A DNA stretch of 64,000 nt from an uncultured Gammaproteobacteria bacterium (GCA_964551135.1 CAZKAT010000003.1:1514-65513), one strand, 5' to 3'. Counted from the stretch's first letter, positions 22,056-41,797 are shown. Made by a program: numbers and translations. Notes: a model not told the origin generated them from the letters alone.

Positions 22056-23180
22056 CTATAGATCCAAGAGCTCAGTGATAAGTTTAATCTTAGAAGATCT
22101 AAGATACTTAGCTCTAAAAGAGACCTGTATCAAATCTTCTAATCTATCTTGATTAAGTTTCTCAGTAAAAATCACTTTCTTAAAGCTAGCGAGCAAGAAA
22201 TCATATTTCATTTCTTTTTTGGTCATTCTTTGTAAATGTGCCTGAATCAAGCTTATAGACTCTGCTTGATTAGTTTGAAGATATTTAAGTACTTGATCTT
22301 GTTCTTTCACAAAATTATCTACTAGATCTTTATTTATCTCATAGAACTCGCTATCTACAACCAGTAGTGTAGTAGGAAACTTATTAATAAATTTCAATTG
22401 ATCAAAAATAAACGCATTCTCACTACCTTCTAATTCTTCTATGACACCATAAGGTGGTCTTTCAGCCAGCTCTGTTACATTAATCATGCCTTTAGAAGTA
22501 AGTAAAGTACCCCAAGGCTCAGCAACTAAAGCAGCATCTATAGAGCCAGTGAAGAATGCCATCTCTAACTCAGCAGGGTGTATCGGAATATATTGCAATT
22601 TTTTATCAAATGATATTAACGGTAACTCCATTAATGACTGGATCTGAGGATGAGAAGCATCATATCTCTTAGCTTGATCTTGCAAACGATTCACCAGAAT
22701 CTTAGCTAGCAAATCTTGAGTATTACCCCACTGCGGCACTGCGATCTTCTTAACATTGAAACCCTTATCAGGTTCATAGTAGCTAGGTAATATCAAACTA
22801 TTACCACCAATGCAGCTAAGCTTAAGTAACTTGAGTTTCACGCCTTTACTGAGAGCATTAATATATGGACCAGGACCTATATAACCTAAATCCAGATTAT
22901 GAGTTAGAAGTGCATCTAATAAATAACCACCCGAGGTAAATGATAATGACTTTGTCTTCGTGAACTTACCAGCTTCCAAACCCACTATAGGGACAGCATG
23001 CGTCATATTCAGTAAATAACCTAGGCGTAATTTATCAACCTTAGTCACTTGCATGCGCTTAGAGCATGACGTTAGAAATAAGGATAGACCTATAATCAGC
23101 ACGAAGGTAGGTGCCGTCATCCTGAGGAGCCTGCGAAGCAGGCGACGTAAGGATCCACTTATACTAAAGTTTTTCTCCAT
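22056..23180 (-). CDS. Substrate-binding lipoprotein, NMT1/SsuA-like (ABC transporter periplasmic component)
   Basis: Lipoprotein signal with lipobox LTSC; body resembles NMT1/THI5/SsuA-type binding proteins. Start set at ATG 23180 (MEKNF...); alternatives are 23120 and the track start 23330. The N-terminal region overlaps palindromic element A. Confidence 0.5.
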   Translation of the reverse strand: MEKNFSISGSLRRLLRRLLRMTAPTFVLIIGLSLFLTSCSKRMQVTKVDKLRLGYLLNMTHAVPIVGLEAGKFTKTKSLSFTSGGYLLDALLTHNLDLGYIGPGPYINALSKGVKLKLLKLSCIGGNSLILPSYYEPDKGFNVKKIAVPQWGNTQDLLAKILVNRLQDQAKRYDASHPQIQSLMELPLISFDKKLQYIPIHPAELEMAFFTGSIDAALVAEPWGTLLTSKGMINVTELAERPPYGVIEELEGSENAFIFDQLKFINKFPTTLLVVDSEFYEINKDLVDNFVKEQDQVLKYLQTNQAESISLIQAHLQRMTKKEMKYDFLLASFKKVIFTEKLNQDRLEDLIQVSFRAKYLRSSKIKLITELLDL

Positions 23181-23226
23181 TATAGTGGATCCTGACGGTC
23201 GGGCTTCGCCCTCCCTCAGGATGACG
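23115..23226. repeat. GC-rich palindromic element A (RPE-like), 112 bp
   Basis: Perfect 13-bp terminal inverted repeat CGTCATCCTGAGG (23115-23127) / CCTCAGGATGACG (23214-23226) plus inner inverted GGATCCACT/AGTGGATCC; GC-rich island in AT-rich DNA; related to elements at 39469-39577 and 41697-41797. Confidence 0.75.
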
Positions 23227-23262
23227 ATTTTCGACTTACGTTTATGCTTATGCATTACTTTG

Positions 23263-23941
23263 TTACTTTGCTTTCTTGTTGTTATGATTCCAAGACTTAA
23301 CACCAGAAGTTTTAATAGAAACCACTGCACCAGGCTTACCTGAAACTGGTCCCTTAACTAATAAAAGTCTTTGCTCTGGGTCATACTTAACTACTTTCAC
23401 TTTAGTGATAGTTACTACATTGTCACCCATTCTTGCAGGCATGCGCTTACCAGGAAACACACGACCTGGAGTTGTACCAGCACCAAGTGAACCAATGATA
23501 CGCTTAGATTTAGAACCGTGACTACGTCTACCAACTCTCATGTTATAGAGCTTAATACCACTCTGAAACCCTTTACCAATCGAAGTGCTAGTAATATTAA
23601 CTTTCTCAAGATCTTTGAAAAAATCTTCAGCATTAACTGCATCCCCAATATTCACACCTTCGATATTCTCGTTAGTTCTAAATTCTTGTAACTTAGATAA
23701 ACTTGGTAAATTTTTCTTTTGTAAATTTCCTCTTTCAGGTTTAGTTAAAAGTGTGTCTCTCTTCTTGAAAGCTCCAAGTTGAAGCGCATAATAACCATCA
23801 CGCTCTTTAGTTTTAATATCAGTTATGATGTTCTCTGCAATCTGAATAACTGTTACTGGTACTACGTCACCCTCAGCATCAAAGACTTGAGTCATGCCTA
23901 GTTTCTTACCGATTAATCCGAAATCTTTAGTTGTTGTTGCC
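23263..23941 (-). CDS. rplC: 50S ribosomal protein L3
   Basis: Start at ATG 23941 (MATTTKDFGLIGKKLGMTQVF) preceded by AGGAGA RBS; conserved L3 blocks KGFQSG, HGS, PGRVFPGKRM; the track start 24000 adds 19 non-conserved residues. Confidence 0.85.
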
Positions 23942-24147
23942 ATAATTTTCTCCTGTTTTTTTATTAGACTTTGTTTCACATTAGAGTAATTCCGAGACAA
24001 GTCTATCTATACAAGGCCCTAATAAATTAAGACCTACACCTAAGCACAGTATTCTATGGCTAGAACCTTCATGCATAAGGCGTAAGGCTAGATTCTAGCA
24101 ATTGAAGATGCCTAAGTATTATTAAGAAAAGATTCAACAATAGTATC

Positions 24148-24177
24148 TTGACAGGTTCACAAAAAATCTGACATAAT
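24148..24177 (+). promoter_or_regulatory. Sigma70-like promoter candidate upstream of the 24210 ORF
   Basis: TTGACA (24148-24153), 18-nt spacer, CATAAT (24172-24177), about 30 nt upstream of the ATG at 24210. Confidence 0.35.
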
Positions 24178-24209
24178 GATACCGCTCAGATCAAATAAGA
24201 TTCAAAATT

Positions 24210-25925
24210 ATGACAAGAATTCCTCGAACAACTCCCGACAGATCATTTCGCCCTATAATTCCAGGACATTATCATAGTCGCAGTTATATTACTTCCACTG
24301 AGGATACTTTTCTAAATTATGATGATTACACTCCACGAATAAGACCTGTCGTTATTAGTCATGATTTTAAACCTCAACGAACAATTGAAATAAACAATGC
24401 TCAATCTAGACAAAAAATTAAGCATCAAATTTACAAAGCCTTAGTAAAGGAAAAGGTTAAAGACGATGCATTAATAGCAATATCTGAAGTTCACGGTGGC
24501 ACAAATAGCTCTCTTATTTACTCAGGTATCAAAGATCCTACAAAACCTGCCGAAACTTTACACTCTCTTCAATTTAAATTAAAGGGTGATCATCCTGAGC
24601 ACGATATTTCTATCGCCAGGGACATTATTGGACAAGTTGGACGCCAAGCTAAGAACTGTGGAGATCTATTTGGTGAACTCTGTGTTGCAAGCTGGCATAA
24701 AGGCGGTAAAGCAGATATTGCTAATGATGATGCTTCAGACTGGAAACACAAGCCAGGCTATTGGGCACATGTCAATCGTGCAATTGTTGATAGAGCTAAA
24801 GATTACGGTAAAAACGAACCATATAGTTTTGGAGAAGCTACTCAAAGTCGATTCGATGACCATTCATTAAACTTACATTCTAGTGTCACTAACGGTCCAG
24901 ATGGAACCCATCACTTATCAGCTAAAAATAAGCAAGGTATTGCTAGAAGGTATCACTCCAATATACAAAACGATGGTAGCTATGGACTCCAGTCATTTAG
25001 AGACTTATATGGAATACCAAAAGAAGAAACCATTGCAACTTTAATTTATGGTTCTGGTTATAACACCAATATCGGGCAGGGAAATATGATTGTTAATACC
25101 GAGAATGGACATATCACCAGGAAAACTTGTCCTGCATTACAGCAAGACTGGGATCAATATGGTCAATTTTTAGAACTGCAGAGAGTTGGTTCTAGCCAAG
25201 AGTTTGGTAATCTTGAAAGACATGAATTAATAGTCGCTGGAGGTAATACTGATAATCAATATGCTGGTCCTAAATTAGCAGCAAACAATATTATCAACTC
25301 AATTACTGAAGACTTAGCTCGTGATGGACAAGCTTCTGCAGTTACAAGTCAAATGTTGAAACTATTAGGGATTAGCTTTGAAGATGCTAAAGTAAGTGAT
25401 TTAATTGATATTAAACGAGAAAGAAATATTGACAATCCAGATATAGATAGAAGTATTCTTACTAATTACAATGACGGAACAGTGTCCCAGAAAGGCTTAC
25501 TGGCACTGAAAATATATGAAAACTTAGCTCATAGAGCTGGAACTATACTTGCTAAATTCTTCGATGACAGTCAAGTTAAGAAGGAACAAGAATTAACTAT
25601 TGATTTTAGAAAAGCAACTAAGATCGGTATCATTGGAAGCCAAGGCAAAGGAATGTATGATAGGAAAATGCCACCATCAATTCTAGGAAATTTCGTTAAT
25701 GCTCTCAATCAAGTTAGACCTAACAATCCATTATATGCAAACGATGTAATAATTCATGCACCGATACAAGACGGTGCCTATGCTGCAGCTCTAGCAAGAT
25801 TAGGAATTCAAATGCGATCATCTGACATTCAAGTTTCTAGCAACATAGATTCTGAAACTGAAGTTGCTAACACTATTAGAGGAGGAGGGTTTAGAGGTGT
25901 GAAGCATCTTGCACAAACTTCTTAA
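24210..25925 (+). CDS. Hypothetical protein (571 aa), no recognisable family
   Basis: Long ORF with a promoter-like element upstream; no motif recognised by eye. Confidence 0.45.
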   Translation: MTRIPRTTPDRSFRPIIPGHYHSRSYITSTEDTFLNYDDYTPRIRPVVISHDFKPQRTIEINNAQSRQKIKHQIYKALVKEKVKDDALIAISEVHGGTNSSLIYSGIKDPTKPAETLHSLQFKLKGDHPEHDISIARDIIGQVGRQAKNCGDLFGELCVASWHKGGKADIANDDASDWKHKPGYWAHVNRAIVDRAKDYGKNEPYSFGEATQSRFDDHSLNLHSSVTNGPDGTHHLSAKNKQGIARRYHSNIQNDGSYGLQSFRDLYGIPKEETIATLIYGSGYNTNIGQGNMIVNTENGHITRKTCPALQQDWDQYGQFLELQRVGSSQEFGNLERHELIVAGGNTDNQYAGPKLAANNIINSITEDLARDGQASAVTSQMLKLLGISFEDAKVSDLIDIKRERNIDNPDIDRSILTNYNDGTVSQKGLLALKIYENLAHRAGTILAKFFDDSQVKKEQELTIDFRKATKIGIIGSQGKGMYDRKMPPSILGNFVNALNQVRPNNPLYANDVIIHAPIQDGAYAAALARLGIQMRSSDIQVSSNIDSETEVANTIRGGGFRGVKHLAQTS

Positions 25926-25927
25926 GC

Positions 25928-27355
25928 TCAAGAATATAAGAGACGCGCCATAGCCATCTTACCTTCTAATACATCGATAAGACCATCCATAGCACCACGA
26001 TCATGCTTGAGAATTTTTAGATCGTTTAAACCATGTTTAGCTCTAAATTTTTGAATAGTACCGATAAACGCATTTTCTCCACCAGGTACTTCTAAAATAC
26101 CATGTAGTAAATGAGATCCGACCATAGCAAACGCAGTAGTCTTAGAGTTTTTCAAGAAATCTGCAAATTTAGTTATAGTAAAGTTTGCCGAACGCTCTGC
26201 TAGAGACAGAGTTAGAGCTAATGCTAAAGAATCACCTTTCTTAGCTTCTTTTTCTATCTCCTCTGCTTTATCTTTTATAGCTAAATCTGGTGAACTTACA
26301 ATTTGAAGTATTTTAGGATTATATTCAATAAAATTAGGAGAACCTAATGTCCCAACTGTTAATTTATGAGTACCATTTATAATAGATATGGCTAACTGTT
26401 TCTCCACTGGCAGATATTTATTCAAGTGTAATAGAACATTTGGAATATTTAGCATGTTCTCTCTTGTAGTTGCATTTTCCAATATCGATTTCAAAGTTTG
26501 ACATTGTCTAACTAATGATCCACCAGCAAGAACCTCTTCTGTATTAAGATCTTTATTTGCTCCTTCATAAATTGCATCTAAAGGAGATTTAAATTTATAG
26601 ATAGATTGATTAGCTTCTGTATTAGGAAGTGGGGGCTGACCTGATTCTGTGTTTTGGGTTCTTCTGAACTGACCAGTCCTAGTGTCATAATCTTCACCAA
26701 TACCTAAATTAAATCCAGTACCATCTACTAGACCAAGTGCGTTTTCACCTTCTTTAAGATGTTGGCCAGCACTAGCTGCAATCGCAACAGTATCGTTTAA
26801 TACAGTAGCTCTTAATCCAGTTTCAGTATCTAAATTACTAATACAATCAATATGATCATTCATTGCTTCATCTCGGTAACTAAGACTGATCTCAGCTCCA
26901 TTAGCTATGTCTCTCATATCACCTAAGGCATCCCAATTAAGTCCTGCCTTATCATTAGCGTTAGCCATGTATATATGTCCTTCTTCTGGGACTTGTGAAC
27001 ATAGTTGATTCAAGGCAACATTCTCTTTTGCATTAGTCGCATATCCTGCTACACCAAAGACTAGATCCATTATTGGTTGACTGACTGCTTTAGCTTGCTT
27101 GACGCAAGTTGCAAGTATCTCCTTCACTACTTTTAAGTCAGCCGTATGGTTAGCTATCGTTGACTTTGATCTCTCAGCTTTGATATCAATATGAATTGGA
27201 TCTTTATGCAAACCTGAAACTGCCATATCAACGCCACTACCACCAACTCTAACTACTGCAGCAAGAGGCTGTTTAGACTCAATAGATTGAGACTGAAGCC
27301 AGTTTGTCCAGTCTGCCGAACTAGTAATATTTACATCTGTAGTATTCATTGCCAT
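25928..27355 (-). CDS. Hypothetical protein (475 aa), possibly actin-like ATPase / sugar-kinase fold
   Basis: Gly-rich segments VVRVGGSGVDMAV and LGLVDGTGFNLGIG loosely resemble phosphate-binding loops of ASKHA-superfamily kinases; assignment weak. Confidence 0.3.
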   Translation of the reverse strand: MAMNTTDVNITSSADWTNWLQSQSIESKQPLAAVVRVGGSGVDMAVSGLHKDPIHIDIKAERSKSTIANHTADLKVVKEILATCVKQAKAVSQPIMDLVFGVAGYATNAKENVALNQLCSQVPEEGHIYMANANDKAGLNWDALGDMRDIANGAEISLSYRDEAMNDHIDCISNLDTETGLRATVLNDTVAIAASAGQHLKEGENALGLVDGTGFNLGIGEDYDTRTGQFRRTQNTESGQPPLPNTEANQSIYKFKSPLDAIYEGANKDLNTEEVLAGGSLVRQCQTLKSILENATTRENMLNIPNVLLHLNKYLPVEKQLAISIINGTHKLTVGTLGSPNFIEYNPKILQIVSSPDLAIKDKAEEIEKEAKKGDSLALALTLSLAERSANFTITKFADFLKNSKTTAFAMVGSHLLHGILEVPGGENAFIGTIQKFRAKHGLNDLKILKHDRGAMDGLIDVLEGKMAMARLLYS

Positions 27356-27406
27356 AACAGCTAGATAATATCATCCCGAGATAAGATTTACAAGATAAAG
27401 AGTTAT

Positions 27407-29452: not shown

Positions 29453-29469
29453 AAGTAATACATTATAAC

Positions 29470-29964
29470 TTATTTATAAGCACAACCCTTATCATGATCA
29501 TTAACCATACCTACTGCTTGCATGAAAGCATAACAAATAGTCGCTCCGACAAATTTAAACCCATGCTTCTTAAGATCCTTGCTCATAGTATCAGCATCTT
29601 TAAAAGACCAAAGATAATCATTAAAGCTTAGACCTTCTTTCTTGAGCTGTAAGTATGCTTTAGCGTTGATGATCACAGAGTTAATTTTAAGTCTATTGCG
29701 AATGATACCAGCATTATTCATAAGCTTCTCTACCTGCTTTTCAGTAAACTTAGAGACCTTCACTGGATCGAAATTCATAAACGCCTTTCTATAATTCTCG
29801 CGCTTATTAAGCACAGTCTCCCAGCTCAATCCAGCCTGTGCACCTTCAAGGCAAAGCATCTCAAACAATTTCTGATCATCATAGATAGGTACTCCCCATT
29901 CCTTATCATGATAGTCAACGTATAAGGGGTTAGCCAAATTAACCCAATGACAACGCTTCTTCAT
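29470..29964 (-). CDS. tag: DNA-3-methyladenine glycosylase I
   Basis: 164 aa; YHDKEWGVP and LEGAQAGLSWETVL motifs typical of Tag; start overlaps the mutS stop by 4 nt. Confidence 0.85.
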   Translation of the reverse strand: MKKRCHWVNLANPLYVDYHDKEWGVPIYDDQKLFEMLCLEGAQAGLSWETVLNKRENYRKAFMNFDPVKVSKFTEKQVEKLMNNAGIIRNRLKINSVIINAKAYLQLKKEGLSFNDYLWSFKDADTMSKDLKKHGFKFVGATICYAFMQAVGMVNDHDKGCAYK

Positions 29965-32717
29965 AGACTCGATTCAAACAACGGCAACTTACCTATATCA
30001 AGCGAACCATCTTCACTAATAGCATCAGTAATATCGTGCTGATCAAGTTGCTTTTTAGTCATACCAAGCTTGCGGCTACGCTGTGCCTGAAGCTGATTAT
30101 TAATCGCTTTCGCTCTATCCAATACTGACTTCGGCAAACCTGCTAAGCGAGCGACTTCTATACCATAGCTGCGATCAGCTGAACCTTCCACTACTTTATG
30201 CAAGAACTCTATTCTAGTCTTAGCATTAGGACTATCATTTTCTACTACTAATACTTGATAGTTTTTAATACAAGGATATAACCTGTCTAAATTTGCAAGC
30301 TCATGATAGTGAGTTGCAAATATAGTGCGCGCTTGAGTAGTCTTAGCAATATGCTCAACTATAGACCAAGCAATCGCTACACCATCATAAGTACTAGTAC
30401 CTCTACCGATCTCATCTAAAACTATAAAACTTCTATCAGTCATAGAATTAATTATGGTCGCTGTCTCGTTCATCTCCACCATAAACGTAGATCTACCAGA
30501 TGCTAGATCGTCACTTGCGCCAATACGCGTGAAAATTCTATCTACTAATCCAATACATGCTTTAGTCGCTGGCACATAGCTACCCATCTGCGCAAGCAGG
30601 ATGATAAGAGCATTTTGGCGCATATAAGTACTTTTACCTGCCATGTTGGGACCAGTTAAAATCATCAGCTTACATTCCCTGCGAAAATCGTCATCTGCTG
30701 CGTTACGCTCGTCCCTCGAACTGCTCATTGACGTTCTAGTCAACTCCGCGTTCTCGGGACTCGCAAGCCTTGCATCTGAACGATTTTCGGCGGGGATATT
30801 TCCCACACCGAGCGTTATATCATTCGGCACAAACTCTCCAAACTTAAGCTTCTGCTCAAGAACAGGATGTCTTCCTTCTTCGATATACAGTTCATGAGAA
30901 TTAAGAAGTTCAGGACGCTTATAGTTTCTTTCTAGTGCAAGTAATGCCATAGACAGTAAAGCATCTAGCTGTGCGACTTGCAGTGCTATTTGTTTAATAA
31001 TCGGTGACTTAATTGCAAGTGATTTACGTAAACCAGAATAGATCTCATATTCTAAAGCATTACGCCTAGATTCTGCATGAGTAACTTTCTCCTCAAACTC
31101 AATTAGTTCCTCGGTTACAGCTCTGATGGTATTCACCATGGTCTGCTTGATCACATAGTGCTCTGGAAGTTTCTTTTCATTAAGTCTAGAGGTCTCGATA
31201 AAATAACCGTGTACCTTATTAAAACTTACTTTAAGGTTTTTAATGCCAAGCTTCTCTCGCTCAGCATCTTCAAAGTTCTTCATCCAAGCTTCAGAATCTT
31301 CTACTAAAGAAATCAATTCATCCAACTCTGCATTATAACCATGTTTAAGAATATTACCCTCGGTAACAGCAAGAGCCGGATCATCTTTCACCGCATTATC
31401 CACTACTCTAATAAAGTCCAAAGCTTGCTCTGGAATATATTTCAAGCTTGTAAGCAAACCAGATTGCAAACCCTGCATCAAAGCAGAGAGCTGCGTCACT
31501 ATAACCATTGAATGTTTCAATGCCACAGCTTCGCGTGGACTGATAAGTTCACTTGCAAGTCTATTAGAAAGCCTATCTATATCATAAGTCTGTGCTAGTA
31601 AATCCTTAAGTTCATTACATAGACTTGGATCTGAGACCAGTTCAGTAACAGCATCCAATCTAGCGTTAATAGCAGGGATATCATATAGTGGTTGCTCCAT
31701 CCATGCACGCAGTTTACGTCTGCCAAGTTTCGAAGACGTGCGATCTATCGCTGAGAAAAACGAACCAGCACTATTACCTCCCAAGGTTTTATTAAGCTCA
31801 AGATTGCGGCGAGTGCTTGCATCAAGCATCATATACTCACTTACATGATAGCTACGAATTTGATCAAAATTCTTAGCTGAGTTATTAGAGAACTCTGCTC
31901 CTTGAGTTTCTTTCAGATATTCAATAATCGCACCAGCAGCACGAAGTGCATAGCCATTGCTTTCTGTGCCCAAACTATCCTCAATCTGTTTCACTGAATT
32001 AAGCTTGAAGAGATCTTCTATATTTTGCACCGCAAGCTTAGTATCAAAATTCCGGTAATTAAATCCACTCAGATAAAATTCAATATTCAACTGATCTAAA
32101 TTAAACATCAATTCTTCTTCTCTGACGATTTGTCCTTCTAGCTTGCCGGCAGGTTTAGATGGCACTATGATTTCTGAAGCATTAATTCTTGCTAACTCTT
32201 GTTCTAAGTATTCAGCTTTAATTTCAGTAAGATAGAACTCGCCTGTAGAGATGTCTGCATAAGCCAAACCATAATGAGAATATGGAGTAGTCGAGTAAAT
32301 CGCGAGAATAAAATTATTCTGATATGAATCTAGAAACTCGAGATCATTGATAGTGCCAGGAGTGAAAACTTTAGTAATCTCGCGCGGCACTAAACCCTTG
32401 CAAGTTTTAGGGTCAGCCATCTGCTCAGCGATATAAACCTTATAATTGCGCTCGAGTAATTTAGCGACATAAGGTCTAATAGCGCGTGCTGGCACTCCTG
32501 CCATAGGAATACGCCCACCTGGATAAGTACTTTCAGGACGTCCGGTTAGAGTTATTTCCAGTTCTTTAGCAATAGTCTCAGCATCTTCAAAAAAGGTCTC
32601 ATAAAAATCCCCCATTCTAAATAAAAGTACTGCTCTACCTTGAAGCCTAAGCCTGGCATTGAGGTATTGCTGCATTACTGGAGTAAAATTAGAGAAATCT
32701 TGAGTTGGGGTCGACAT
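29961..32717 (-). CDS. mutS: DNA mismatch repair protein MutS (carries an in-frame repeat-element insertion)
   Basis: 918 aa; N-terminal mismatch-binding region (MQQYL...GDFYE) and ABC ATPase Walker A GPNMAGKST; about 33 extra residues immediately N-terminal of the Walker A are encoded by repeat element C. Confidence 0.9.
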   Translation of the reverse strand: MSTPTQDFSNFTPVMQQYLNARLRLQGRAVLLFRMGDFYETFFEDAETIAKELEITLTGRPESTYPGGRIPMAGVPARAIRPYVAKLLERNYKVYIAEQMADPKTCKGLVPREITKVFTPGTINDLEFLDSYQNNFILAIYSTTPYSHYGLAYADISTGEFYLTEIKAEYLEQELARINASEIIVPSKPAGKLEGQIVREEELMFNLDQLNIEFYLSGFNYRNFDTKLAVQNIEDLFKLNSVKQIEDSLGTESNGYALRAAGAIIEYLKETQGAEFSNNSAKNFDQIRSYHVSEYMMLDASTRRNLELNKTLGGNSAGSFFSAIDRTSSKLGRRKLRAWMEQPLYDIPAINARLDAVTELVSDPSLCNELKDLLAQTYDIDRLSNRLASELISPREAVALKHSMVIVTQLSALMQGLQSGLLTSLKYIPEQALDFIRVVDNAVKDDPALAVTEGNILKHGYNAELDELISLVEDSEAWMKNFEDAEREKLGIKNLKVSFNKVHGYFIETSRLNEKKLPEHYVIKQTMVNTIRAVTEELIEFEEKVTHAESRRNALEYEIYSGLRKSLAIKSPIIKQIALQVAQLDALLSMALLALERNYKRPELLNSHELYIEEGRHPVLEQKLKFGEFVPNDITLGVGNIPAENRSDARLASPENAELTRTSMSSSRDERNAADDDFRRECKLMILTGPNMAGKSTYMRQNALIILLAQMGSYVPATKACIGLVDRIFTRIGASDDLASGRSTFMVEMNETATIINSMTDRSFIVLDEIGRGTSTYDGVAIAWSIVEHIAKTTQARTIFATHYHELANLDRLYPCIKNYQVLVVENDSPNAKTRIEFLHKVVEGSADRSYGIEVARLAGLPKSVLDRAKAINNQLQAQRSRKLGMTKKQLDQHDITDAISEDGSLDIGKLPLFESSL
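30692..30790. repeat. Repeat element C (about 97 bp), in frame within mutS
   Basis: About 90% identical to 38316-38412 in gatB (shared core catctgctgcgttacgctcgt...cattgacgt...agtcaactccg...actcgcaagccttgcatctg); GC-rich relative to flanks. Confidence 0.8.
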
Positions 32718-32751
32718 CTAAACCTAATAATAGCGTACCTTAAGTAGTAAA

Positions 32752-33744: not shown

Positions 33745-33778
33745 GAAAACCAATGCTGGAGACAAAAAGCTGGTTAAA

Positions 33779-33967
33779 TTATTGTTGAGCTGGTTCTTCG
33801 GCTGCTTTATAAGAGCATTCTGCTGTATCTGCAAACTCTAGAACTTCCCCAAGTCCTTTAAGTTTATTTTCGTACTTGATTATTAAACTATCAAGTTCTT
33901 TTCTTGTTCGATAAAGAGTACCCAATTCCTTAGCGTACTTTTTGAACTCATCGACTATATTTTCCAT
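33779..33967 (-). CDS. Small hypothetical protein (62 aa)
   Basis: ORF only; coiled-coil-like sequence; no family recognised. Confidence 0.25.
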   Translation of the reverse strand: MENIVDEFKKYAKELGTLYRTRKELDSLIIKYENKLKGLGEVLEFADTAECSYKAAEEPAQQ

Positions 33968-34191
33968 TCCATATCTCCTACGTCAGTCATTACCTAAATT
34001 GAAAAGCGAGCAAGGCCACTAGAATATTCAGTTAGCAGCACTCCCTCTTTATAATCGGACAGTCGGGCGCAAAACTTGAGCTCTATTTAGCTGAATTTTT
34101 GCTGCATAATCTATATTTTATTATACGTATGACGGATCTAGAAGGCTTTTGAGCAAAAATACGCTAAATGATCTAGGTCAAATGGGGGAGA

Positions 34192-36714
34192 CTAGAGGCT
34201 AAACACTGACTTCTCTTCCGCTTCTGGAGCTATTTCTAGCTTAGGTCTATATTTTTCTATATCTGCAGGACTTGCAAGCCTATCATAACCACAACCCTTA
34301 GTATCAGAGCAGGCTACTTTATCACCACGCTTAAGAGTTTTATACATCATTAATTTATTGCATTGCGGGCAATGCTCATTGATTGGCGGATACCAGAACA
34401 CTGCATCACACTTAGTCTTAGACCAAGAGTTACAACCATAGAAAATCTTACCGAAGCGTGATTTCTTCTCAACTATCTCACCTTCACAACCTTCTTTAGG
34501 ACAATGTACACCAGTTTTCTTTTGTATAGGCGAAGTATGTTTGCAATCCTTAGTAGTACAAGCAAGGTAGTCACCATAACGTCCATAACGAATCACTAGC
34601 GAACCGTGCTTCTTACAGTCAGGACAATCTTCCTCTGCATAAGGTCTATCATCTGGAGCAGGCTTGCCTTCCTTAGTTAAATTAATAATGGTCTGACAAT
34701 CTGGATACTTAGAACAACCTAAGAAGGGTCCGAAACGAGATGACTTGAGATTCATAGTCGCACCACAACTAGGACAGTTATATTCTGTTGGTATAACAAT
34801 ATTCTCTATCTCACCTGATGCTTTCTTGACTATATCAATGAAGCCAGGGTCTAAACCTTCAGCAGGATCTTTCTCAACCTTAGCAGTCTTAGCATCTGAA
34901 TCTTCTTTTTTCTTCTTGCCGCCACGTTTAGGTTTGATCTTCTCTTTTTTCTTCCAATCTTTACCGAAATAAAATTCCTTGAGCATCACTATCCAATCTT
35001 GACCATGCTCTGCTACTGCATCTAAGCCGCTCTCCATCTGCGAAGTGAAATCTACATTAATATACTTACCAAAGTACTGTACCAATAACTCATTAACTTG
35101 CACACCGAGTCGGGTAGGTCTGAGTGCAGTACCATTCTCTACTTTCTCAACATACTTACGATCTTGAATAGTAGCAATAGTCGGTGCATAAGTAGAAGGT
35201 CTTCCTATGCCCAATTCCTCTAATACCTTCACCAAGCTTGCTTCATTGAACCTTGGTGGACCTTCAGTGAAATGTTGTTCTGGGCTAGCTTTGATCAGCT
35301 TGATTAGAGTGCCTTCTTTAATATCATCAGAGAACTTAGAATCTACTTCTTGAGCTTCCATATCCTCATTAATCTCATGACCACCATCAAATACTATTGA
35401 ATAACCTGCAAATATTTTCTTGGAGTTACTTGCTCTAAATAGCAGATCGCCCTTCTCAGATTCAATCTCCACAGTCTGTATCTCAAGCTTCATTGCCGTC
35501 ATCTGAGACGACATAAACCTCTGCCAGATTAGCTTATAGAGCTTGTATTGTTCATCAGTCAGATAGCTCTTAATTGATTCAGGAGTTTTGTCGATATAAG
35601 TAGGTCTAATCGCCTCGTGTGCATCTTGTTCGTTTGCTTTTTTGACCTTACCGTAAATATTTGGAGGATCAGGATAGTATTTATCTCCCCACTTATTAAG
35701 AATGTATTGTTTAGCTTCTGCCTGAGCTTCTTCAGCAATGCGTAAGCTATCAGTTCTCATATAGGTAATCAAACCAACTTGATCATTGCCACCAAGCTTG
35801 ACACCCTCATAAAGCCCCTGCGCTACCTGCATAGTACGTCTAACGGTAAATCCAAGCGCATTACTTGCTGCTCGCTGTAAAGTAGAAGTCTTAAAAGGAG
35901 CTTGTGATTTCTTGCTATTAGGTTTAGTAGAGATCTTAGTAACACTGAGCTTTGCAGATTTAATACGCTCAGTAATCTTATCCACTTCTGCTTTAGAACT
36001 AATCACCATCGCCTTAGTAGCATCGTAATCCTTCAGTGGGCTAACGATACGTTTAGAATCGACTTGCGCTAAAGCAACTCTAAAAGGATGATCTTTAGCA
36101 GCTTCTGTGACATCAGCATCTACTGACCAATATTCTTCAGGTATAAACTTAAGTATCTCTGCTTCTCTTTCACAAATTAATCTCACCGCAATAGACTGTA
36201 CTCTACCAGCACTACGTCCACCAATCTTGCGCCATAATAACGGACTGATCTTATAACCAACTAACCTATCCAAAATTCTTCGAGCTTGCTGAGCATCTAC
36301 CAGAGCTTGATTGATCTCCCTTGGATGCGCCACAGCACTTTTAACAGCATCAGGAGTGATTTGATTAAACGCAATTCTAGAAAACTTTTTACTCTTAATA
36401 ATCTGAGATAAATGCCACGCAATAGCTTCTCCTTCACGGTCAGGGTCGCTTGCTAGATAGATATGCTCAGCCTTCTTAGCAAACTCATTAAGCTCATCAA
36501 CAACCTTCTTCTTACCGGTCATAATCTCATAGCTTGGCTCAAAGTTATTCTTAACATCTATGCCTAAACCCTTAGCTGCAAGATCACGAATATGTCCAAC
36601 ACTTGATTTAACCAAGAAATCAGCCCCTAGTATCTTCGTAAGGGTCTTGGATTTAGCAGGTGACTCAACTATCACCAGGTATTTAAAATCTTTCTCTGAA
36701 CTTGTTTTAGCCAT
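34192..36714 (-). CDS. topA: DNA topoisomerase I
   Basis: 840 aa; N-terminal TOPRIM (LVIVESPAKSKTL), type IA topoisomerase core, C-terminal Cys4 zinc-ribbon repeats (CPSCGATM...CSKYPDC). Confidence 0.9.
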   Translation of the reverse strand: MAKTSSEKDFKYLVIVESPAKSKTLTKILGADFLVKSSVGHIRDLAAKGLGIDVKNNFEPSYEIMTGKKKVVDELNEFAKKAEHIYLASDPDREGEAIAWHLSQIIKSKKFSRIAFNQITPDAVKSAVAHPREINQALVDAQQARRILDRLVGYKISPLLWRKIGGRSAGRVQSIAVRLICEREAEILKFIPEEYWSVDADVTEAAKDHPFRVALAQVDSKRIVSPLKDYDATKAMVISSKAEVDKITERIKSAKLSVTKISTKPNSKKSQAPFKTSTLQRAASNALGFTVRRTMQVAQGLYEGVKLGGNDQVGLITYMRTDSLRIAEEAQAEAKQYILNKWGDKYYPDPPNIYGKVKKANEQDAHEAIRPTYIDKTPESIKSYLTDEQYKLYKLIWQRFMSSQMTAMKLEIQTVEIESEKGDLLFRASNSKKIFAGYSIVFDGGHEINEDMEAQEVDSKFSDDIKEGTLIKLIKASPEQHFTEGPPRFNEASLVKVLEELGIGRPSTYAPTIATIQDRKYVEKVENGTALRPTRLGVQVNELLVQYFGKYINVDFTSQMESGLDAVAEHGQDWIVMLKEFYFGKDWKKKEKIKPKRGGKKKKEDSDAKTAKVEKDPAEGLDPGFIDIVKKASGEIENIVIPTEYNCPSCGATMNLKSSRFGPFLGCSKYPDCQTIINLTKEGKPAPDDRPYAEEDCPDCKKHGSLVIRYGRYGDYLACTTKDCKHTSPIQKKTGVHCPKEGCEGEIVEKKSRFGKIFYGCNSWSKTKCDAVFWYPPINEHCPQCNKLMMYKTLKRGDKVACSDTKGCGYDRLASPADIEKYRPKLEIAPEAEEKSVFSL

Positions 36715-36929
36715 CTTGGTCTTAAATTTTAGTTGATTGATATTCCTTATATATGTTTCTAAGCAGGTCTAATATTACATAGCTATACCACAATTTTTAA
36801 AACTAGTAGAGAAATAAATTATTAATAGGTGTTTTCATTCATATTATTTATGATTATCGTAACGGAGCTATACAAATTAGATCTCAATACGCTAATATTA
36901 ATACATATTAACAGTTTAAGGAGTTGAAT

Positions 36930-37025
36930 ATGATCAAGCAATTAATCGCTGAAATCTTGGCCACAATCACTAATCTGATTCTGGGCCGAAGATATGCATA
37001 TCAAGTAGTGAAACGTAAATCCTAA
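36930..37025 (+). CDS. Candidate small hydrophobic peptide (31 aa)
   Basis: ATG 36930 preceded by AAGGAG with 6-nt spacer; encodes MIKQLIAEILATITNLILGRRYAYQVVKRKS; below the length cutoff of the supplied ORF track. Confidence 0.3.
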   Translation: MIKQLIAEILATITNLILGRRYAYQVVKRKS

Positions 37026-37057
37026 GGAGTCCGACCATAGTACCAGCTAACCTACAA

Positions 37058-37882
37058 GTGAATACAAACTCTAGGCGTGATGCTGATTATGATTTCTCAC
37101 GCCGTTCTAGAATAGATCCTATTTTCAGTCAGACACAAAAACCAAAAAGTTTCATTGCTGATAATGGTGGAAGTTTTATGGGGGATTTACACAATCCTCT
37201 CTTAGAAAACAGTATACATGCCCCTGCTAGATTAGATTACAGACCTAAATTTACTGAATATGGCTTAGATGATTTAATGCATCCAGAAACAATAGACAAA
37301 GCAAAAGACTGGACTGAAAAAATTACCGACTTCTTTAAGATCGCAGGTGATGCTACAAACAAAGTATTCTCACAACTCGGAGATATAACTAATGTTGGAA
37401 TTAATAAAACAGCAAGCAATCCTATGATCGTTACTGCTGGTGCAGCAATCGTAGGATTAATAGCTGGACTTAAAGCTGTAAAAAATATTCTCCATGGTAT
37501 TAAAGTAGCAATGGATCCTAAAAGTGATCCTAAACTAGGCTGGTTGCCACATGAGATATTAGGTATATTACAGGGTGGTTTATTCTTTGGTCTAACTTCT
37601 TCATTCTTTGGTAAGAGAAATTTCCTTACTGAATTCCAAAATGGTAAGCCAGTAGTAAAAGTCAAATCAATTATAGGAGTAGGCGTAGCTGCCCTTGGTT
37701 TAAGTGTCGCAATGGCACTCGCTAAGAGCACTTCAGTATTCCGCAAAGTTCCATTAATAGGACCTGCTATGCAAGAAATCAGTGAAACTGTATTTGGAGC
37801 AGCTAAAGAAGTAACTGTACCAACAGAAGACAATCAGAATGCTGCTGGACACGGAGCTGCTTTACCTGGAATGCCAGGCTAG
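37058..37882 (+). CDS. Hypothetical membrane protein
   Basis: 274 aa with several Gly/Ala-rich hydrophobic helices; start uncertain (GTG 37058 or ATG 37178 with GGTGGAAG upstream). Confidence 0.4.
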   Translation: MNTNSRRDADYDFSRRSRIDPIFSQTQKPKSFIADNGGSFMGDLHNPLLENSIHAPARLDYRPKFTEYGLDDLMHPETIDKAKDWTEKITDFFKIAGDATNKVFSQLGDITNVGINKTASNPMIVTAGAAIVGLIAGLKAVKNILHGIKVAMDPKSDPKLGWLPHEILGILQGGLFFGLTSSFFGKRNFLTEFQNGKPVVKVKSIIGVGVAALGLSVAMALAKSTSVFRKVPLIGPAMQEISETVFGAAKEVTVPTEDNQNAAGHGAALPGMPG

Positions 37883-39444
37883 AGTAATTTAGCAAGTATC
37901 TCATTTACCATTGCTGGCGAAGCTTTACCCTGCGTAAGTTTCATAACCTGTCCCACAAAAAACCCTTGAATCTTTGCGTTACCAGATTTATATTGTTCTA
38001 CTTGTTTTGGATTAGCAGAGATCACTTCTTTAATAACAGTCTCCAAAGCTCCTGTATCAGTAATCTGTGCTAGACCTTTATCATCAATTAACTTCTGCAC
38101 TGAACCACCATTAACCAAAAGCTCATTAATAATATCGTTCTTAGCAATATTATCCGAAATAATGCCTTGATCTATCAGTTTAATCATCTCAGCTAGTAGA
38201 GTTGCTGTAAGTTTAGTTTCTCTGATACTGAGTTTACTCTCGTTGAGGTAAGCAGCTACAGGACCTACCAACCAATTAGCAGCCTTAACAGCATTAGAGC
38301 CTATCCGCAAAGTCCCATCTGCTGCGTTACGCTCGTTCCTCGGACTACTCATTGACGTCTCAGTCAACTCCGTGTCCTCGGAACTCGCAAGCCTTGCATC
38401 TGGGAGCTTTTCGGATAGGCTCTTAATAACCTCTTCAAAATAGATCGCCGTATCCACTTCATCTGTAAGCGTAGTCGCTGTATCTTCATTAATATTAAAC
38501 TCTGCTATATATCTACTACGCTTCTGTTGCGGTAATTCTGGCAGAGAAGTTTTAGCTGTATCAATTTGCTTTTGGTTTAAAGTGAGAGGTAATAAATCTG
38601 GCTCAGGGAAATATCTATAATCATGAGCATCTTCTTTCGATCTCATAGAATGGGTTTTACCAGTGTTCTCATCGAAAAGTCTAGTCTCTTGAACCACAGT
38701 ACCAGCTTGATCTAATATTTCTGATTGACGTTTATATTCATACTCTATAGCGCGAGAAATAGATCTAAAGCTATTAACATTCTTGATCTCAGCGCGAGTA
38801 CCGAACTTCTCAGCACCAGGTTTATTCAATGAAATATTAATATCACATCTAAGCGAGCCTTCTTGCATATTGCCATCACATACTCCTATATATAGAAGTA
38901 TTTTACGCAACTCTTTCACGTAAGCCACAGCCTCATCAGCAGAACGTATATCAGGCTCTGAAACTATCTCTATAAGCGGCGTTGAAGCACGATTAAGATC
39001 TACTAGTGAATAATCTGAACCATGTAATCTCTCAGCACCTGAGTGTACTAACTTACCCGCATCTTCTTCCATGTGAATTCTTAATATGCGCACATCTTTA
39101 GAACCAATATTTAGCTTGCCATGATTACAGATAGGCTTATCGTATTGAGAGATCTGGTAACCCTTAGGTAGATCTGGATAGAAGTATTGCTTGCGATCGA
39201 ATTTAGAATTAAGATCTATCTGACAACCTAATGCTAGTCCAGCTTTAATCGCATACTCTACTGCGCGCTCATTCAATACTGGTAAAACTCCTGGATAACC
39301 CATACATACTGGGCAGGTATTCGCGTTCGGCTCTGCTCCAAACTTAGTAGAACAAGAACAAAATAACTTAGACTCAGTTCTGAGCTGAGCATGGACTTCT
39401 AGTCCGATAACGATTTGGTATTTTAATGCAGTTTCTGTTGCCAT
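37879..39444 (-). CDS. gatB: Asp-tRNA(Asn)/Glu-tRNA(Gln) amidotransferase subunit B (carries an in-frame repeat-element insertion)
   Basis: N-terminal YQIVIGLEVHAQL and CSC...CPVCMGYPG motifs; start set at ATG 39444 (MATETALKYQ...) matching canonical GatB N-termini; the track start 39522 would extend into palindromic element B. Confidence 0.9.
   Translation of the reverse strand: MATETALKYQIVIGLEVHAQLRTESKLFCSCSTKFGAEPNANTCPVCMGYPGVLPVLNERAVEYAIKAGLALGCQIDLNSKFDRKQYFYPDLPKGYQISQYDKPICNHGKLNIGSKDVRILRIHMEEDAGKLVHSGAERLHGSDYSLVDLNRASTPLIEIVSEPDIRSADEAVAYVKELRKILLYIGVCDGNMQEGSLRCDINISLNKPGAEKFGTRAEIKNVNSFRSISRAIEYEYKRQSEILDQAGTVVQETRLFDENTGKTHSMRSKEDAHDYRYFPEPDLLPLTLNQKQIDTAKTSLPELPQQKRSRYIAEFNINEDTATTLTDEVDTAIYFEEVIKSLSEKLPDARLASSEDTELTETSMSSPRNERNAADGTLRIGSNAVKAANWLVGPVAAYLNESKLSIRETKLTATLLAEMIKLIDQGIISDNIAKNDIINELLVNGGSVQKLIDDKGLAQITDTGALETVIKEVISANPKQVEQYKSGNAKIQGFFVGQVMKLTQGKASPAMVNEILAKLL
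38316..38412. repeat. Repeat element D (about 97 bp), in frame within gatB
   Basis: About 90% identical to 30692-30790 in mutS; encodes ARLASSEDTELTETSMSSPRNERNAADG, paralleling ARLASPENAELTRTSMSSSRDERNAADD in MutS. Confidence 0.8.
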
Positions 39445-39468
39445 ATATGGAGATTTTATCATATTAGT

Positions 39469-39577
39469 CGTCATCGCGAGGAGCGAGCGCAGCGAGTGAC
39501 GTCGCGATCCAGACGAATGCACAATATTTATGACTGGATCCCGACGTCGTCCACTTCGTGGACTCCTCGGGATGACG
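39469..39577. repeat. GC-rich palindromic element B (RPE-like), 109 bp
   Basis: Terminal inverted repeats CGTCATCGCGAGGAG (39469-39483) / CTCCTCGGGATGACG (39563-39577) and inner GGATCCAG/CTGGATCC; same family as element A; sits between gatB and nfi, and the nfi ORF terminates inside it. Confidence 0.75.
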
Positions 39578-40289
39578 GAACTAAAATATCTCCTACTTTT
39601 ACAAGCTTCTTTACTTCCTTGGAATACTGATCCGCTAACCTGGTTGCCTTGGGTATTCTATAGCCATCACAAAATTTAGTAATTATTTCTAAACTAGTTG
39701 GATGATCGATAAGATATCCAGGTGAAATAAAGACCGGATTACATTTAGCTTTAGTTCTGAGTACCGTACCAATAAGTTCATGGCTTTTAGGATCAAGAAG
39801 TTTGGAAGTGGAGAATCGTTCTTCAGCAAGCTTAGAATATTCACCATAGAGTAAAGATTTAGCGCAACCAATGGTCGGTTTATTTATCATCAAACCCATA
39901 TGCGAAGCAATTCCCAAGCGCCTTGGATGAGCGACTCCCTGTCCATCAAAGATATAAATATCAGCATTAATATTATGCTGCTCTATCAGTGCTAAATATA
40001 GAGAACATTCGCGAAAGCTCAGTAAGCCTGGAATATAAGGGAACTTAATCTCACCCACATAGTAATAACGATTAATAATTTCAAGCTCAGGGAAACTAAA
40101 AAGAACAGAAACAGCATAAGCTTGTCCCTGAGCTGTTCCAGCAGAAATAAACCTAGGATTAAGTTCTAAAGCTAAATCAAAAGCAGCTATAGTCTTGATC
40201 TCATCTAAAGAACCAAAAGAATTTTTTAAAACAATTTGTGAGGTCAATTGTTTTTGCAATTGGATTGCATCTTGAGGAGAAACTAGCAT
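39528..40289 (-). CDS. nfi: Endonuclease V
   Basis: 253 aa; AAFDLA, YIPGLLSFRE, HPRRLGIASHMG and PTIGCAKS motifs typical of endonuclease V; the last about 17 codons lie inside palindromic element B. Confidence 0.8.
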   Translation of the reverse strand: MLVSPQDAIQLQKQLTSQIVLKNSFGSLDEIKTIAAFDLALELNPRFISAGTAQGQAYAVSVLFSFPELEIINRYYYVGEIKFPYIPGLLSFRECSLYLALIEQHNINADIYIFDGQGVAHPRRLGIASHMGLMINKPTIGCAKSLLYGEYSKLAEERFSTSKLLDPKSHELIGTVLRTKAKCNPVFISPGYLIDHPTSLEIITKFCDGYRIPKATRLADQYSKEVKKLVKVGDILVPSSRGVHEVDDVGIQS

Positions 40290-40326
40290 TAAGCGTTAAT
40301 TATAGCTATTTGCTATTATATTATGT

Positions 40327-41124
40327 ATGCTTGGAATCTATATCACCGCTGGCTACCCAAATACTCAGAGCACTATTAAAGCTCTCAAAATTCTTGACGA
40401 GGCTAATGTTGATTTAATAGAACTTGGAGTTCCTTTCTCTGATCCTTTAGCTGACGGTCCAGTAATTCAAAAAGCTGCATATCAAGCACTGCAGCAAGGC
40501 ATGAACCTGGATAAAATTTTTGCTCTATTAGAAGAAGCTCGCAGCCAAGGTATCAAGGCAAGTTCAGGCAAAGGCTTAAACAATGTAATCTTGTTCTCCT
40601 ACTATAATCCACTCTATGCTTATGGCTGGGATAAGTTAATCAAACAATGTCAAGCACATCAAATACGCGGCGCACTAATTCCTGACTTACCTGTAGATGA
40701 AGCAGAAGTTCTATCTAAAAAATTTAAAGATGCTGGATTAGATTTAATTCTACTAGCAGCTATAACCAGTACTGATGAGCGCTTGCGTAAGATCTATGAT
40801 CTATCATCACCATTTATTTACTTAGTTAGCCGCATTGGTATCACTGGAAGCGACAGTGATGTTCAATCCTTGAAAGGTAACAGCTCTACTAGCGTTGACC
40901 GTCCGCTCTCAAGTGTTATTAGCAAGCTTAAGTCTTTTGGTAATAAGCCTATTGCTTTAGGTTTTGGTATAGATTCACGCACCAAAGTAGAAGATGCTTA
41001 TAAGACAGGAGCAGATATGGCAATAGTAGGAACCAAGGCGGTAAGAGTGCTTGAAGCCTGCGATGAAAGCTTGAATTGTTTTAAAGAATTTATTAAAGCT
41101 CTAAGAGCACCAGTAGAGGTATAA
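40327..41124 (+). CDS. trpA: Tryptophan synthase alpha chain
   Basis: 265 aa; ELGVPFSDPLADGPVIQ signature; no trpB adjacent. Confidence 0.85.
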   Translation: MLGIYITAGYPNTQSTIKALKILDEANVDLIELGVPFSDPLADGPVIQKAAYQALQQGMNLDKIFALLEEARSQGIKASSGKGLNNVILFSYYNPLYAYGWDKLIKQCQAHQIRGALIPDLPVDEAEVLSKKFKDAGLDLILLAAITSTDERLRKIYDLSSPFIYLVSRIGITGSDSDVQSLKGNSSTSVDRPLSSVISKLKSFGNKPIALGFGIDSRTKVEDAYKTGADMAIVGTKAVRVLEACDESLNCFKEFIKALRAPVEV

Positions 41125-41126
41125 TA

Positions 41127-41606
41127 GTGGACTTCTCACCTTATCAATTAATTGATTATTCAGCTGAATATCATGACGAGCTGATAGTGTTTCTAGATCA
41201 AGGTTATAAGTTTGTTGGTTACACTAGTTTAGAATTAGATACTTTAGATGATGATCTGTTGAATATAGAAGAAGTTTATGCTCAGCCATCTTGTTTTAAA
41301 TTATTACTAAAAGGCGAAAGCATTATAGGCAGTGTCGCTGTAAAAATTAGTGCTAATGAAGCAGAACTGAAAAGAGTCTTCGTTAATCCCAGTCTCCATG
41401 GTCAAGGCATAGGTAAGAATCTCTCACTCTGGGCATTTGACTATGCTAAAGAGCAAGGTTGCCATACTATGCATATCTGGTCTGGCACCCTCTGTGAAAC
41501 AGCCCATAGCCTCTACGAATATTTAGGCGCAACAAACACTCAAGAGCAACGTTTTATAGGTGGGCAGGATGATTGCTATGAATACTACTTCATAAAGAAG
41601 CTTTAA
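41127..41606 (+). CDS. GNAT-family N-acetyltransferase
   Basis: 159 aa; acetyl-CoA binding motif RVFVNPSLHGQGIGKNL. Confidence 0.75.
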   Translation: MDFSPYQLIDYSAEYHDELIVFLDQGYKFVGYTSLELDTLDDDLLNIEEVYAQPSCFKLLLKGESIIGSVAVKISANEAELKRVFVNPSLHGQGIGKNLSLWAFDYAKEQGCHTMHIWSGTLCETAHSLYEYLGATNTQEQRFIGGQDDCYEYYFIKKL

Positions 41607-41696
41607 ACATAGTCTTAATCAGGGAATGATATAATCAATAGCAACTAAGGTATTTAGTCTGTAAACTGACAATTTGGTAAACCCAATAATTATAAG

Positions 41697-41797
41697 ACGC
41701 AGTTATTTTGTCATTATTCGAGGCAGTTTGCTCCTGAGCGACCGGAGTGTATATGAACATACATGAGGATCGCGAAGGAGCAAACTAACGAAGAAGA
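41697..41797. repeat. Palindromic element E (about 100 bp), upstream of ssrA
   Basis: Imperfect inverted repeat TTTTGTCATTATTCGAGGCAGTTTGCTCCTGAGCGA / TCGCGAAGGAGCAAACTAACGAAGAAGAATGACAAAAG; termini resemble the GTCAT...GAGG ends of elements A and B. Confidence 0.6.

Follow-up and report, generated by a model that had tools for sequence, protein, structure and literature searches.

How are GC-rich palindromes that overlap the ends of genes in otherwise AT-rich bacterial DNA to be classified, and by what process might they have come to lie there? The question is raised by a stretch of 64,000 nucleotides (hereafter the window) deposited under the name of an uncultured Gammaproteobacteria bacterium (GCA_964551135.1, CAZKAT010000003.1:1514-65513), in which an earlier note, made from the sequence alone, had described three palindromes, elements A, B and E, as one family of miniature inverted-repeat elements that remodels gene termini. 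The evidence set out below favours another classification, to which we would assign a probability of roughly 0.8, namely that A and B are head-to-head doublets of CGTC-tagged hairpin units resembling repetitive extragenic palindromic (REP) sequences, and belong with the dispersed, non-autonomous palindromic repeats listed by Di Nocera, De Gregorio and Rocco (BMC Genomics 2013; PMC3733652). Such units are here called family 1, and a second family of palindromes in the same DNA, to which E belongs, is called F2. No new kind of system is revealed; the kind has already been described, and what is new is the host lineage, a unit with a long loop and a nested structure, and a set of filled, empty and replaced sites. 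The two family-1 elements and their parts, which include a possible start of an open reading frame (ORF) for a lipoprotein and an arm shared with a metagenome-assembled genome (MAG), are as follows.

23115-23226 (112 nt), no strand: element A, family 1; two CGTC-tagged units set head to head
23115-23157, plus strand: A left unit; CGTC, ATCCTGA, GG-AGCCTGCGAAGCAGGC-GACG, TAAGGAT, CCA
23158-23185, no strand: A spacer, AT-rich; contains M51 of the long lipoprotein ORF (ATG at 23180-23178, minus strand)
23186-23226, minus strand: A right unit; its sequence CGTCATCCTGAGGGAGGGCGAAGCCCGACCGTCAGGATCCA (the 'alpha arm') is found unchanged in three copies from the sister MAG CAZELI01
39469-39577 (109 nt), no strand: element B, family 1; a heterodimer, its CGTC-tagged units set head to head
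39469-39511, plus strand: B left unit; stem ATCGCGA / TCGCGAT, tail CCA
39512-39534, no strand: B spacer; contains the nfi TAA stop (39530-39528, minus strand)
39535-39577, minus strand: B right unit; stem ATCCCGA / TCGGGAT, tail CCA; codes most of the Nfi tail
23128-23150, 39482-39504 and 39542-39564: nested mini-hairpins in the arm loops

The coordinates first given for A and B proved accurate, and both elements are real and lie far beyond chance. The terminal repeat of A is a perfect 13-nt inverted repeat (CGTCATCCTGAGG), the terminal repeats of B (CGTCATCGCGAGGAG and CGTCATCCCGAGGAG) are alike at 14 of 15 positions, and both elements carry inner GGATCCA / TGGATCC repeats. The motif CGTCATCNNGAGG has four exact occurrences in the window, which are the four ends of A and B, against 0.01 expected from dinucleotide-preserving shuffles. 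Folded as single-stranded DNA (ssDNA), A reaches -33.7 kcal/mol (z = -7.6) and B reaches -32.4 kcal/mol (z = -4.7), with 0 of 200 shuffles as stable in either case. Both are GC-rich islands, as had been claimed, with 54% GC in A and 59% in B against 36% in the window. The sequences of B and E are identical across three independent assemblies and are therefore not assembly artefacts; one short contig is broken within B, as is usual at repeats. A search of the window with an arm profile (nhmmer) found no further arms, and one-mismatch matches to the motif at 5654 and 57820, which are without a partner arm, were dismissed as chance.

At gathering score, Rfam reported the tmRNA alone in the window and seven other loci; no Rfam family covered A or B, and a relaxed search on A produced only a plant miRNA hairpin far below threshold (27 bits against a cut-off of 135 bits). 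Scans for promoters and terminators near A, B and E gave nothing above shuffles and no terminator-like T-runs, and a tRNA scan found no tRNA. A plasmid BLAST search with A as query matched nothing, and a literature search for the literal motif returned unrelated primer matches only.

Each element contains two units of 41-43 nt with their CGTC tags directed outward and, between them, an AT-rich spacer whose length is 28 nt (A) or 23 nt (B). The layout of a unit is CGTC, ATCNNGA, GG followed by a small GC hairpin and GACG, TCNNGAT and CCA, and the four arms of the window all conform to it. The apparent terminal inverted repeats of A and B thus arise because two REP-like hairpin units stand head to head. 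Covariation was assessed in an alignment of 21 distinct arms drawn from the window, its relatives and unrelated MAGs, in which the two variable bases (NN) of ATCNNGA change in step with those of TCNNGAT (CT/AG, GC/GC, CC/GG and TT/AA, with TGC/GCA in ATTGC variants). The three variable stem pairs are Watson-Crick in 21/21 arms; both partners have changed together 4, 9 and 6 times, and in no case did one partner change alone (the G-U type of change); none of 500 shuffles matched the observed covariation or the percentage paired, and the signal was gone once the 3' partner was slid by one to three columns. The A-T-type first pairs 5-42 (A-U) and 6-41 (U-A) are invariant in all 21 arms. The CGTC tag is present in 20 of the aligned arms, the remaining one having TGTC, and in 4/4 window arms; the CCA tail is found in 17/21 aligned arms, the rest having CTA or CTC, and likewise in all four from the window. 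Overall, the stem comprises five base pairs that are always paired and two positions that are often unpaired, and encloses a loop of 16-34 nt with an internal hairpin.

The conserved, covarying helix is therefore one within each arm and not one between arms. Element B illustrates this well, as its arms are unlike each other (GC versus CC) and mismatched in the long hairpin, yet each has its own perfect 7-bp stem. The lack of G-U intermediates in the covariation means that pairing as DNA fits better than pairing as RNA. Read on the opposite strand, the loop hairpin together with GACG is itself a miniature hairpin consisting of CGTC, a 6-bp stem, a 3-nt loop and TCC, and the family-1 unit looks like one REP nested inside another.

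Copies of the family are not confined to the window. An exact-pattern scan of species-representative genomes (CGTCATCNNGAGG, 70-100 nt, CCTCNNGATGACG) returned at least 120 loci. Among the matches listed, most belong to Bradyrhizobium, Rhodopseudomonas, Afipia, Nitrobacter, Pseudolabrys and other Xanthobacteraceae (60-69% GC), with a few in Flavobacteriales MAGs and other MAGs and three loci in the AT-rich MAG CAZELI01. The intra-arm stem was no part of the scan pattern; with up to two mismatches in seven allowed, it was present in 219 of 256 arms among those matches, against 69 of 256 when the interiors were shuffled. Bradyrhizobium-type copies among them have tails that mostly start with G and are not CCA. 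The CAZELI01 copies are about 80% identical to A overall, and the arm CGTCATCCTGAGGGAGGGCGAAGCCCGACCGTCAGGATCCA recurs at three of its loci with 100% identity. Doublets with the tags outside are likewise found in L012, L045, L120, L125 and L129 (such labels denote the loci compared), and density varies, with two doublets and one intragenic unit in 19 kb of L125, three copies in 8 kb of L012 (a locus chosen by the pattern) and two doublets in the 64 kb of the window. Bradyrhizobium-type CGTC doublets were also observed on eight IMG/VR viral or prophage contigs of 65-68% GC (L132-L139), and such contigs are a possible route of spread between genomes.

To what lineage the window belongs has a bearing on how these copies are read. 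The window itself is part of a metagenome contig of 288 kb. Judged by sequence, CAZELI01 (GCA_964512985.1) is a sister of the organism from which the window comes; the two GatB proteins share 83% identity, the loci are syntenic, and one CAZELI01 contig was found in the same ENA sample as the window. Named GatB homologues listed (68-54% identity) are all from Cyanobacteria, Candidatus Caenarcaniphilales or Candidatus Melainabacteria MAGs, and the closest named homologues of the lipoprotein discussed below (39-29%) are from Cyanobacteria, Caenarcaniphilales and Melainabacteria MAGs. The NCBI label 'uncultured Gammaproteobacteria bacterium' of the sister MAG (L126, CAZELI010000021.1, a contig with the GatB orthologue) is doubtful and probably wrong, because the only named homologues of these two proteins come from such MAGs. 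The window also contains flagellar rod genes and a one-piece tmRNA, and the host would seem to be an AT-rich lineage like the Melainabacteria or Caenarcaniphilales. Among the other loci compared, L004 and L130 come from the very fragmented assembly GCA_013565675.1, which, we infer, is probably a eukaryote-associated sample.

Element E and the remaining palindromes of the window belong to a different sequence family and are located as follows.

41706-41806, no strand: element E, a palindrome with TGTCAT ends (TTTTGTCAT...ATGACAAAA); a diverged orthologue of F2 copies, and not family 1
41824-42228, plus strand: ssrA (one-piece tmRNA), from Rfam
30677-30795, minus strand: F2 palindrome in mutS, in-frame, just before the Walker A motif (..PAENRSDARLASPENAELTRTSMSSSRDERNAADDDFRR..)
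38296-38423, minus strand: F2 palindrome in gatB, in-frame; a clean insertion of 117 nt (39 aa) that L004, L125 and L127 lack

That E is a genuine palindrome just upstream of ssrA holds good (ssDNA fold z = -5.7; 17 nt lie between it and ssrA), with its span displaced by about 9 nt from the 41697-41797 first given. Its grouping with A and B does not hold, although those two do share one architecture. Local alignment of E with A and with B is insignificant (z = 0.9 and 1.9, respectively), the GTCAT/ATGAC end alone being in common, whereas alignment with palindromes in the same GNAT-ssrA spacer of L125 and L127, which are clear F2 members, gives z = 13. E is the diverged orthologue of those F2 copies. 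In L004, the site upstream of ssrA holds a family-1 element in place of F2, and an integrated element lies by ssrA in the same locus (1-7040) with a serine recombinase, a SEFIR/TIR-domain protein, DUF3854/DUF5906 and an HTH protein, all of it absent from the window. The two GC-rich F2 copies of the window, which the earlier note does not mention, share 87% identity across a 99-nt core. A peptide module encoded by F2 (..DARLA.SE..ELT..SM...ERNAA..) occurs at another gatB position in two more distant homologues and near the window's position in a third, so that the insertions are independent. The ends of F2 (AAAATCG[T/C]C...) and the TGTCAT ends of E give a weak hint that these palindromes, too, may be loosely connected with the tag superfamily of A and B. 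As a separate observation, the F2 coding copies in mutS and gatB resemble the 'coding palindromes' of Rickettsia.

Comparison of the window with its relatives, site by site, gives the following occupancy.

nfi-gatB site: B in the window; empty in L004, where the nfi stop is 9 nt before gatB, the window being longer by about 141 nt (B and 28 AT-rich nt)
nfi-gatB site in L125 and L127: nfi absent altogether
Downstream of topA: empty in the window, L004 and L127; doublet in L125
Upstream of mutS: empty in the window, L004 and L128; doublet in L125
mutS before Walker A: F2 in the window; a 77-nt family-1 doublet in-frame (8397-8473) in L128; an internally shortened F2 in L125
trpA: none in the window; in-frame unit ASLRGAERSEAILTSPSGSSG (7193-7254) in L125
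Site A (rplC-lipoprotein spacer): A in the window; occupied in 4/4 relatives, in differing forms
Forms at site A: full doublet with an ATTGC-type arm in L129; single unit TGTCATTGCGAGGAGCGCAGCGACGAAGCAATCTAG in L130; remnant CTCCTCGCAATGACG in L131

The pattern is one of turnover and not of static conservation. An empty site in a relative had been named as a check on the elements, and L004, which lacks B at the syntenic nfi-gatB site, provides one. The mutS site of L004 may be empty as well, as is suggested by an L004 MutS that is 44 aa shorter than that of the window; the fetched locus stops just before the site. Where nfi is missing, L127 has a ParE/RelB toxin-antitoxin pair in its place between trpA and gatB (1697-2222), and the corresponding nfi-less interval of L125 spans 6959-7835.

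Among described repeats, the closest counterparts are the CGTC REPs of Di Nocera et al. (2013), with which A and B are compared here through passages of that paper's text and supplement (PMC3733652). These REPs, grouped in families CGTC-1 to CGTC-4 and abundant in Bradyrhizobium and Rhodopseudomonas, carry a CGTC tag (at times TGTC or CCTC), stems that open with A-T and T-A pairs and a 3-nt tail that is mostly CCA. They occur mainly as dimers with the tags outside and with possibly structured spacers of 20-100 bp, heterodimers being frequent, and are placed shortly after ORFs, with neighbouring genes that run in one direction or converge; copies within genes, often genes for replication or repair, are also described, and no transposase is associated with them. 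The canonical unit has a stem of 8-9 bp and a loop of 4-5 nt, odd loops being given only for CGTC-1 of Bradyrhizobium and two other species. REP-encoded peptides such as VIPAKAGI, VIAGLDPAIH and WIPAFAGMT appear in a supplementary list. A and B agree with these passages in tag, AT-first stem, CCA tail, tags-outside dimers, spacer length within 20-100 bp and the presence of a heterodimer, in their placement just downstream of ORFs between co-directional genes, in the existence of in-gene copies that include repair genes, and in peptides read from the same GTC-AT... frame (VILRS...KDP and ...LLRMT; VI...(D)P). Unlike the CGTC REPs of these passages, the A/B loop carries a nested mini-hairpin, and the AT-rich Melainabacteria-like host lineage is unnamed in them.

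Three further classes of repeat invite comparison. The same passages equate CGTC-1 and CGTC-4 of Rickettsia conorii with the Rickettsia palindromic elements (RPEs) RPE-6 and RPE-4, respectively (PMC3733652), and Matsutani et al. found an ATGAC motif to be typical of RPE-4/6/7, with orthologues carrying different RPE groups at the same sites (PMC3767692). A (112 nt) and B (109 nt) fall within the range of about 95-140 bp of RPE-4/6/7 and share with them the ATGAC/GTCAT motif and a GC-rich composition in an AT-rich host; they also resemble RPEs in having in-frame copies in genes, at the C-terminus of Nfi in the window, in mutS (L128) and in trpA (L125), as well as at gene ends, and in the differing element groups found at one site in orthologues (PMC3767692). 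In contrast to RPEs, the host of A and B is not one of the Rickettsiales, and the in-frame mutS and gatB copies of the window are F2 and not of the A/B family. With REP doublets forming hairpins (REPINs) the shared features are two inverted hairpins, a short spacer, the possibility of one long hairpin, dispersal and non-autonomy. REPINs, reportedly mobilised by REP-associated tyrosine transposases (RAYTs) in work attributed to Bertels and Rainey in 2011, differ in having GTAG-type tags and a single-copy RAYT gene flanked by REPs. Bacterial miniature inverted-repeat transposable elements (MITEs; Correia/NEMIS, Nezha, RUP) are similar in length (about 100-150 bp), in their terminal inverted repeats, in being foldable and in affecting adjacent genes; they differ from A and B in target-site duplications and a cognate insertion sequence (IS) transposase, neither seen for A or B, and the functional unit of A and B is a half-element hairpin.

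The data show membership of the family by architecture, covariation of the stem within the unit, a distribution over many genomes, polymorphic insertion and effects on coding. On the reading that A and B are doublets of REP-like units, such doublets are gained, lost and replaced at gene ends and within genes of the host lineage, and an insertion can be read through into protein because several of the element frames are open. By analogy with GTAG REPINs, and from the exclusively Watson-Crick covariation, we infer that the units may move as ssDNA hairpins through a trans-acting enzyme of the HUH/Y1 type (RAYT or IS200-like) or another kind. Nested or adjacent palindromes could be preferred as targets, which would explain both the hot spots and the nested structure. 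Several points weigh against this reading. The A/B stem has 5-7 bp and the loop 16-34 nt, in place of the 8-9 bp and 4-5 nt given in the catalogue passages, and this misfit is why A and B are filed as a long-loop variant of the superfamily and not within CGTC-1 to CGTC-4. The link to RPE-4 and RPE-6 goes through the equation that Di Nocera et al. drew in those passages with CGTC-4 and CGTC-1, and not through direct sequence comparison, and the similarity across phyla could in part be convergence on a short motif. There are only two copies within the 64-kb window, and no empty allele of site A exists among the four relatives. A Pfam search of 20 window ORFs and 10 ORFs flanking the CAZELI01 copies found no HUH/Y1, RAYT or other transposase, and the called genes of the relatives' loci contain none, all of this being a small part of a genome. 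Finally, neither a target-site duplication nor an exact junction is readable at A, B or the copies in L125, L128 and L129, because the flanks have diverged.

Some of this evidence bears also on the rival reading under which A and B would be classical MITEs, that is, internally deleted IS derivatives mobilised by a DDE transposase that reads terminal inverted repeats of 13-15 bp and generates target-site duplications. The near-perfect terminal repeats, the length of about 110 bp, the GC-rich islands in AT-rich DNA and the insertion polymorphism are as expected of MITEs. The label nevertheless fares poorly and we consider it very unlikely, for no direct repeats flank A, B or the relatives' copies, no IS with these ends is present in the window of about 64 kb or in about 150 kb of the relatives, a single unit (L130) and a 77-nt doublet (L128) exist, and the covarying helix lies within the arm, the differing arms of B (GC versus CC) each having a stem of their own. 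It is also hardly credible that the three palindromes are unrelated inverted repeats produced by chance or locally; E is indeed unrelated to A and B in sequence, but four exact motif occurrences against 0.01 expected, fold z-scores of -4.7 to -7.6, copies in many genomes and E homologues (z = 13) at the orthologous site of two relatives speak against it.

A further alternative is that the palindromes are structural or regulatory signals selected by the host to tune flanking genes, as mRNA 3'-end stabilisers, attenuators, processing sites or binding sites for protein or gyrase. In its favour are the strong folds and the position of all three elements between co-directional genes, the distance to the preceding stop codon being 36 nt for A, 0 for B and about 100 nt for E, a bias that is reported for REPs too; site A and the site upstream of ssrA are moreover filled in every relative examined. 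Against this stand the lack of terminator-like T-runs and of a promoter excess, the restriction of B, the topA copy and the mutS-upstream copy each to one lineage, the presence of different families at one site in different relatives, copies within the coding sequence of mutS, trpA and gatB, and the covariation lacking G-U intermediates, which suits DNA pairing better than RNA pairing. We therefore judge the alternative unlikely; a function of the elements could have been acquired secondarily.

Beyond the interpretation of A and B as REP-like doublets, a broader proposition may be entertained tentatively, and with more doubt than belief: that two nested CGTC/TGTC-tagged families are still actively turning over in an AT-rich clade with small genomes, preferentially landing in or replacing one another at hot spots (the MutS loop before Walker A and the GNAT-ssrA and rplC-lipoprotein spacers) and creating translated insertions in essential genes (mutS, gatB, trpA and nfi), in a manner like that of RPEs but outside the Rickettsiales. 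The 'coding palindromes' of Rickettsia are a textbook oddity, and an element of that kind, in a long-loop nested variant, is found here among relatives of the Cyanobacteria. For CGTC-type repeats, no mobilising enzyme has been identified since the 2013 catalogue. The empty site of B, the different families at one site in sisters and the in-frame insertions in mutS, gatB and trpA constitute natural experiments and, if the turnover reading is true, close genomes that co-occur in one sample and differ in occupancy could reveal that enzyme by comparative genomics.

The effects on individual genes were described correctly in outline from the start, and concern the following coding sequences.

39528-40289, minus strand: nfi, for endonuclease V (253 aa), of which B codes residues 238-253 and the stop
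37879-39444, minus strand: gatB; start ATG at 39444; contains the in-frame F2 insertion
22056-23120, minus strand: NMT1/NitT-TauT-type substrate-binding lipoprotein gene; start ATG at 23120 (the GATGACG terminus of A) or 23180
23263-24000, minus strand: rplC; along the direction of transcription, its stop precedes A by 36 nt

Homologues of Nfi end in ...SKEVKK and one to three further residues, whereas the protein of the window runs on as LVKVGDILV-PSSRGVHEVDDVGIQS. The PSSRGVHEVDDVGIQS segment represents the 16 residues coded by B (about 17 in the earlier count), and the TAA stop (39528-39530) falls in the central spacer of the element. B took the place of the former end of nfi and brought 16 new codons and a stop. 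On the other side of B, the gene caller put the start of gatB at an ATG within the GATGACG end of the left unit (39474-39472, minus strand); the true start is the ATG at 39444, as in the relatives. A 274-aa ORF beside gatB retains its position in all relatives.

Element A overlaps the 5' region of the lipoprotein gene, as had been noted, in that A contains every ATG start that precedes the lipobox LTSC. One of them, M71, is supplied by the GATGACG terminus (23120-23118) and gives a signal peptide of 19 aa without a charged N-region; the other, M51, in the spacer (23180-23178), gives one of 39 aa with an Arg-rich N-region. The terminus of A codes for the 'LLRMT' of the signal peptide, and LLxMT coded by an element terminus just before the hydrophobic core is found in the window, L129 and L131. 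The terminus of A thus seems to supply the start region of the predicted lipoprotein signal peptide, and the remodelling of gene ends claimed for these elements extends to a start region (A) as well as to a protein tail and stop (B). A 424-aa lipoprotein ORF that extends into rplC is an artefact of the open frame through A. For annotation more generally, gene callers start gatB and the lipoprotein gene at the ATGs of GATGACG termini and extend nfi into the repeat.

Elsewhere in the window, several sizeable ORFs, at 37058-37882 (plus strand; the 274-aa ORF beside gatB), 42289-43602, 43644-44843, 24210-25925 and 25928-27355, have no Pfam match. The largest GC island (20211-20348) is no repeat element, as it is a collagen-like Gly-X-Y coding run; it belongs to a 1431-aa ORF (16902-21197, minus strand) that also has internal repeats of about 740 nt. 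A 117-nt direct repeat is present at 53313-53429 and 53911-54027, its copies being 74% identical and 598 nt apart.

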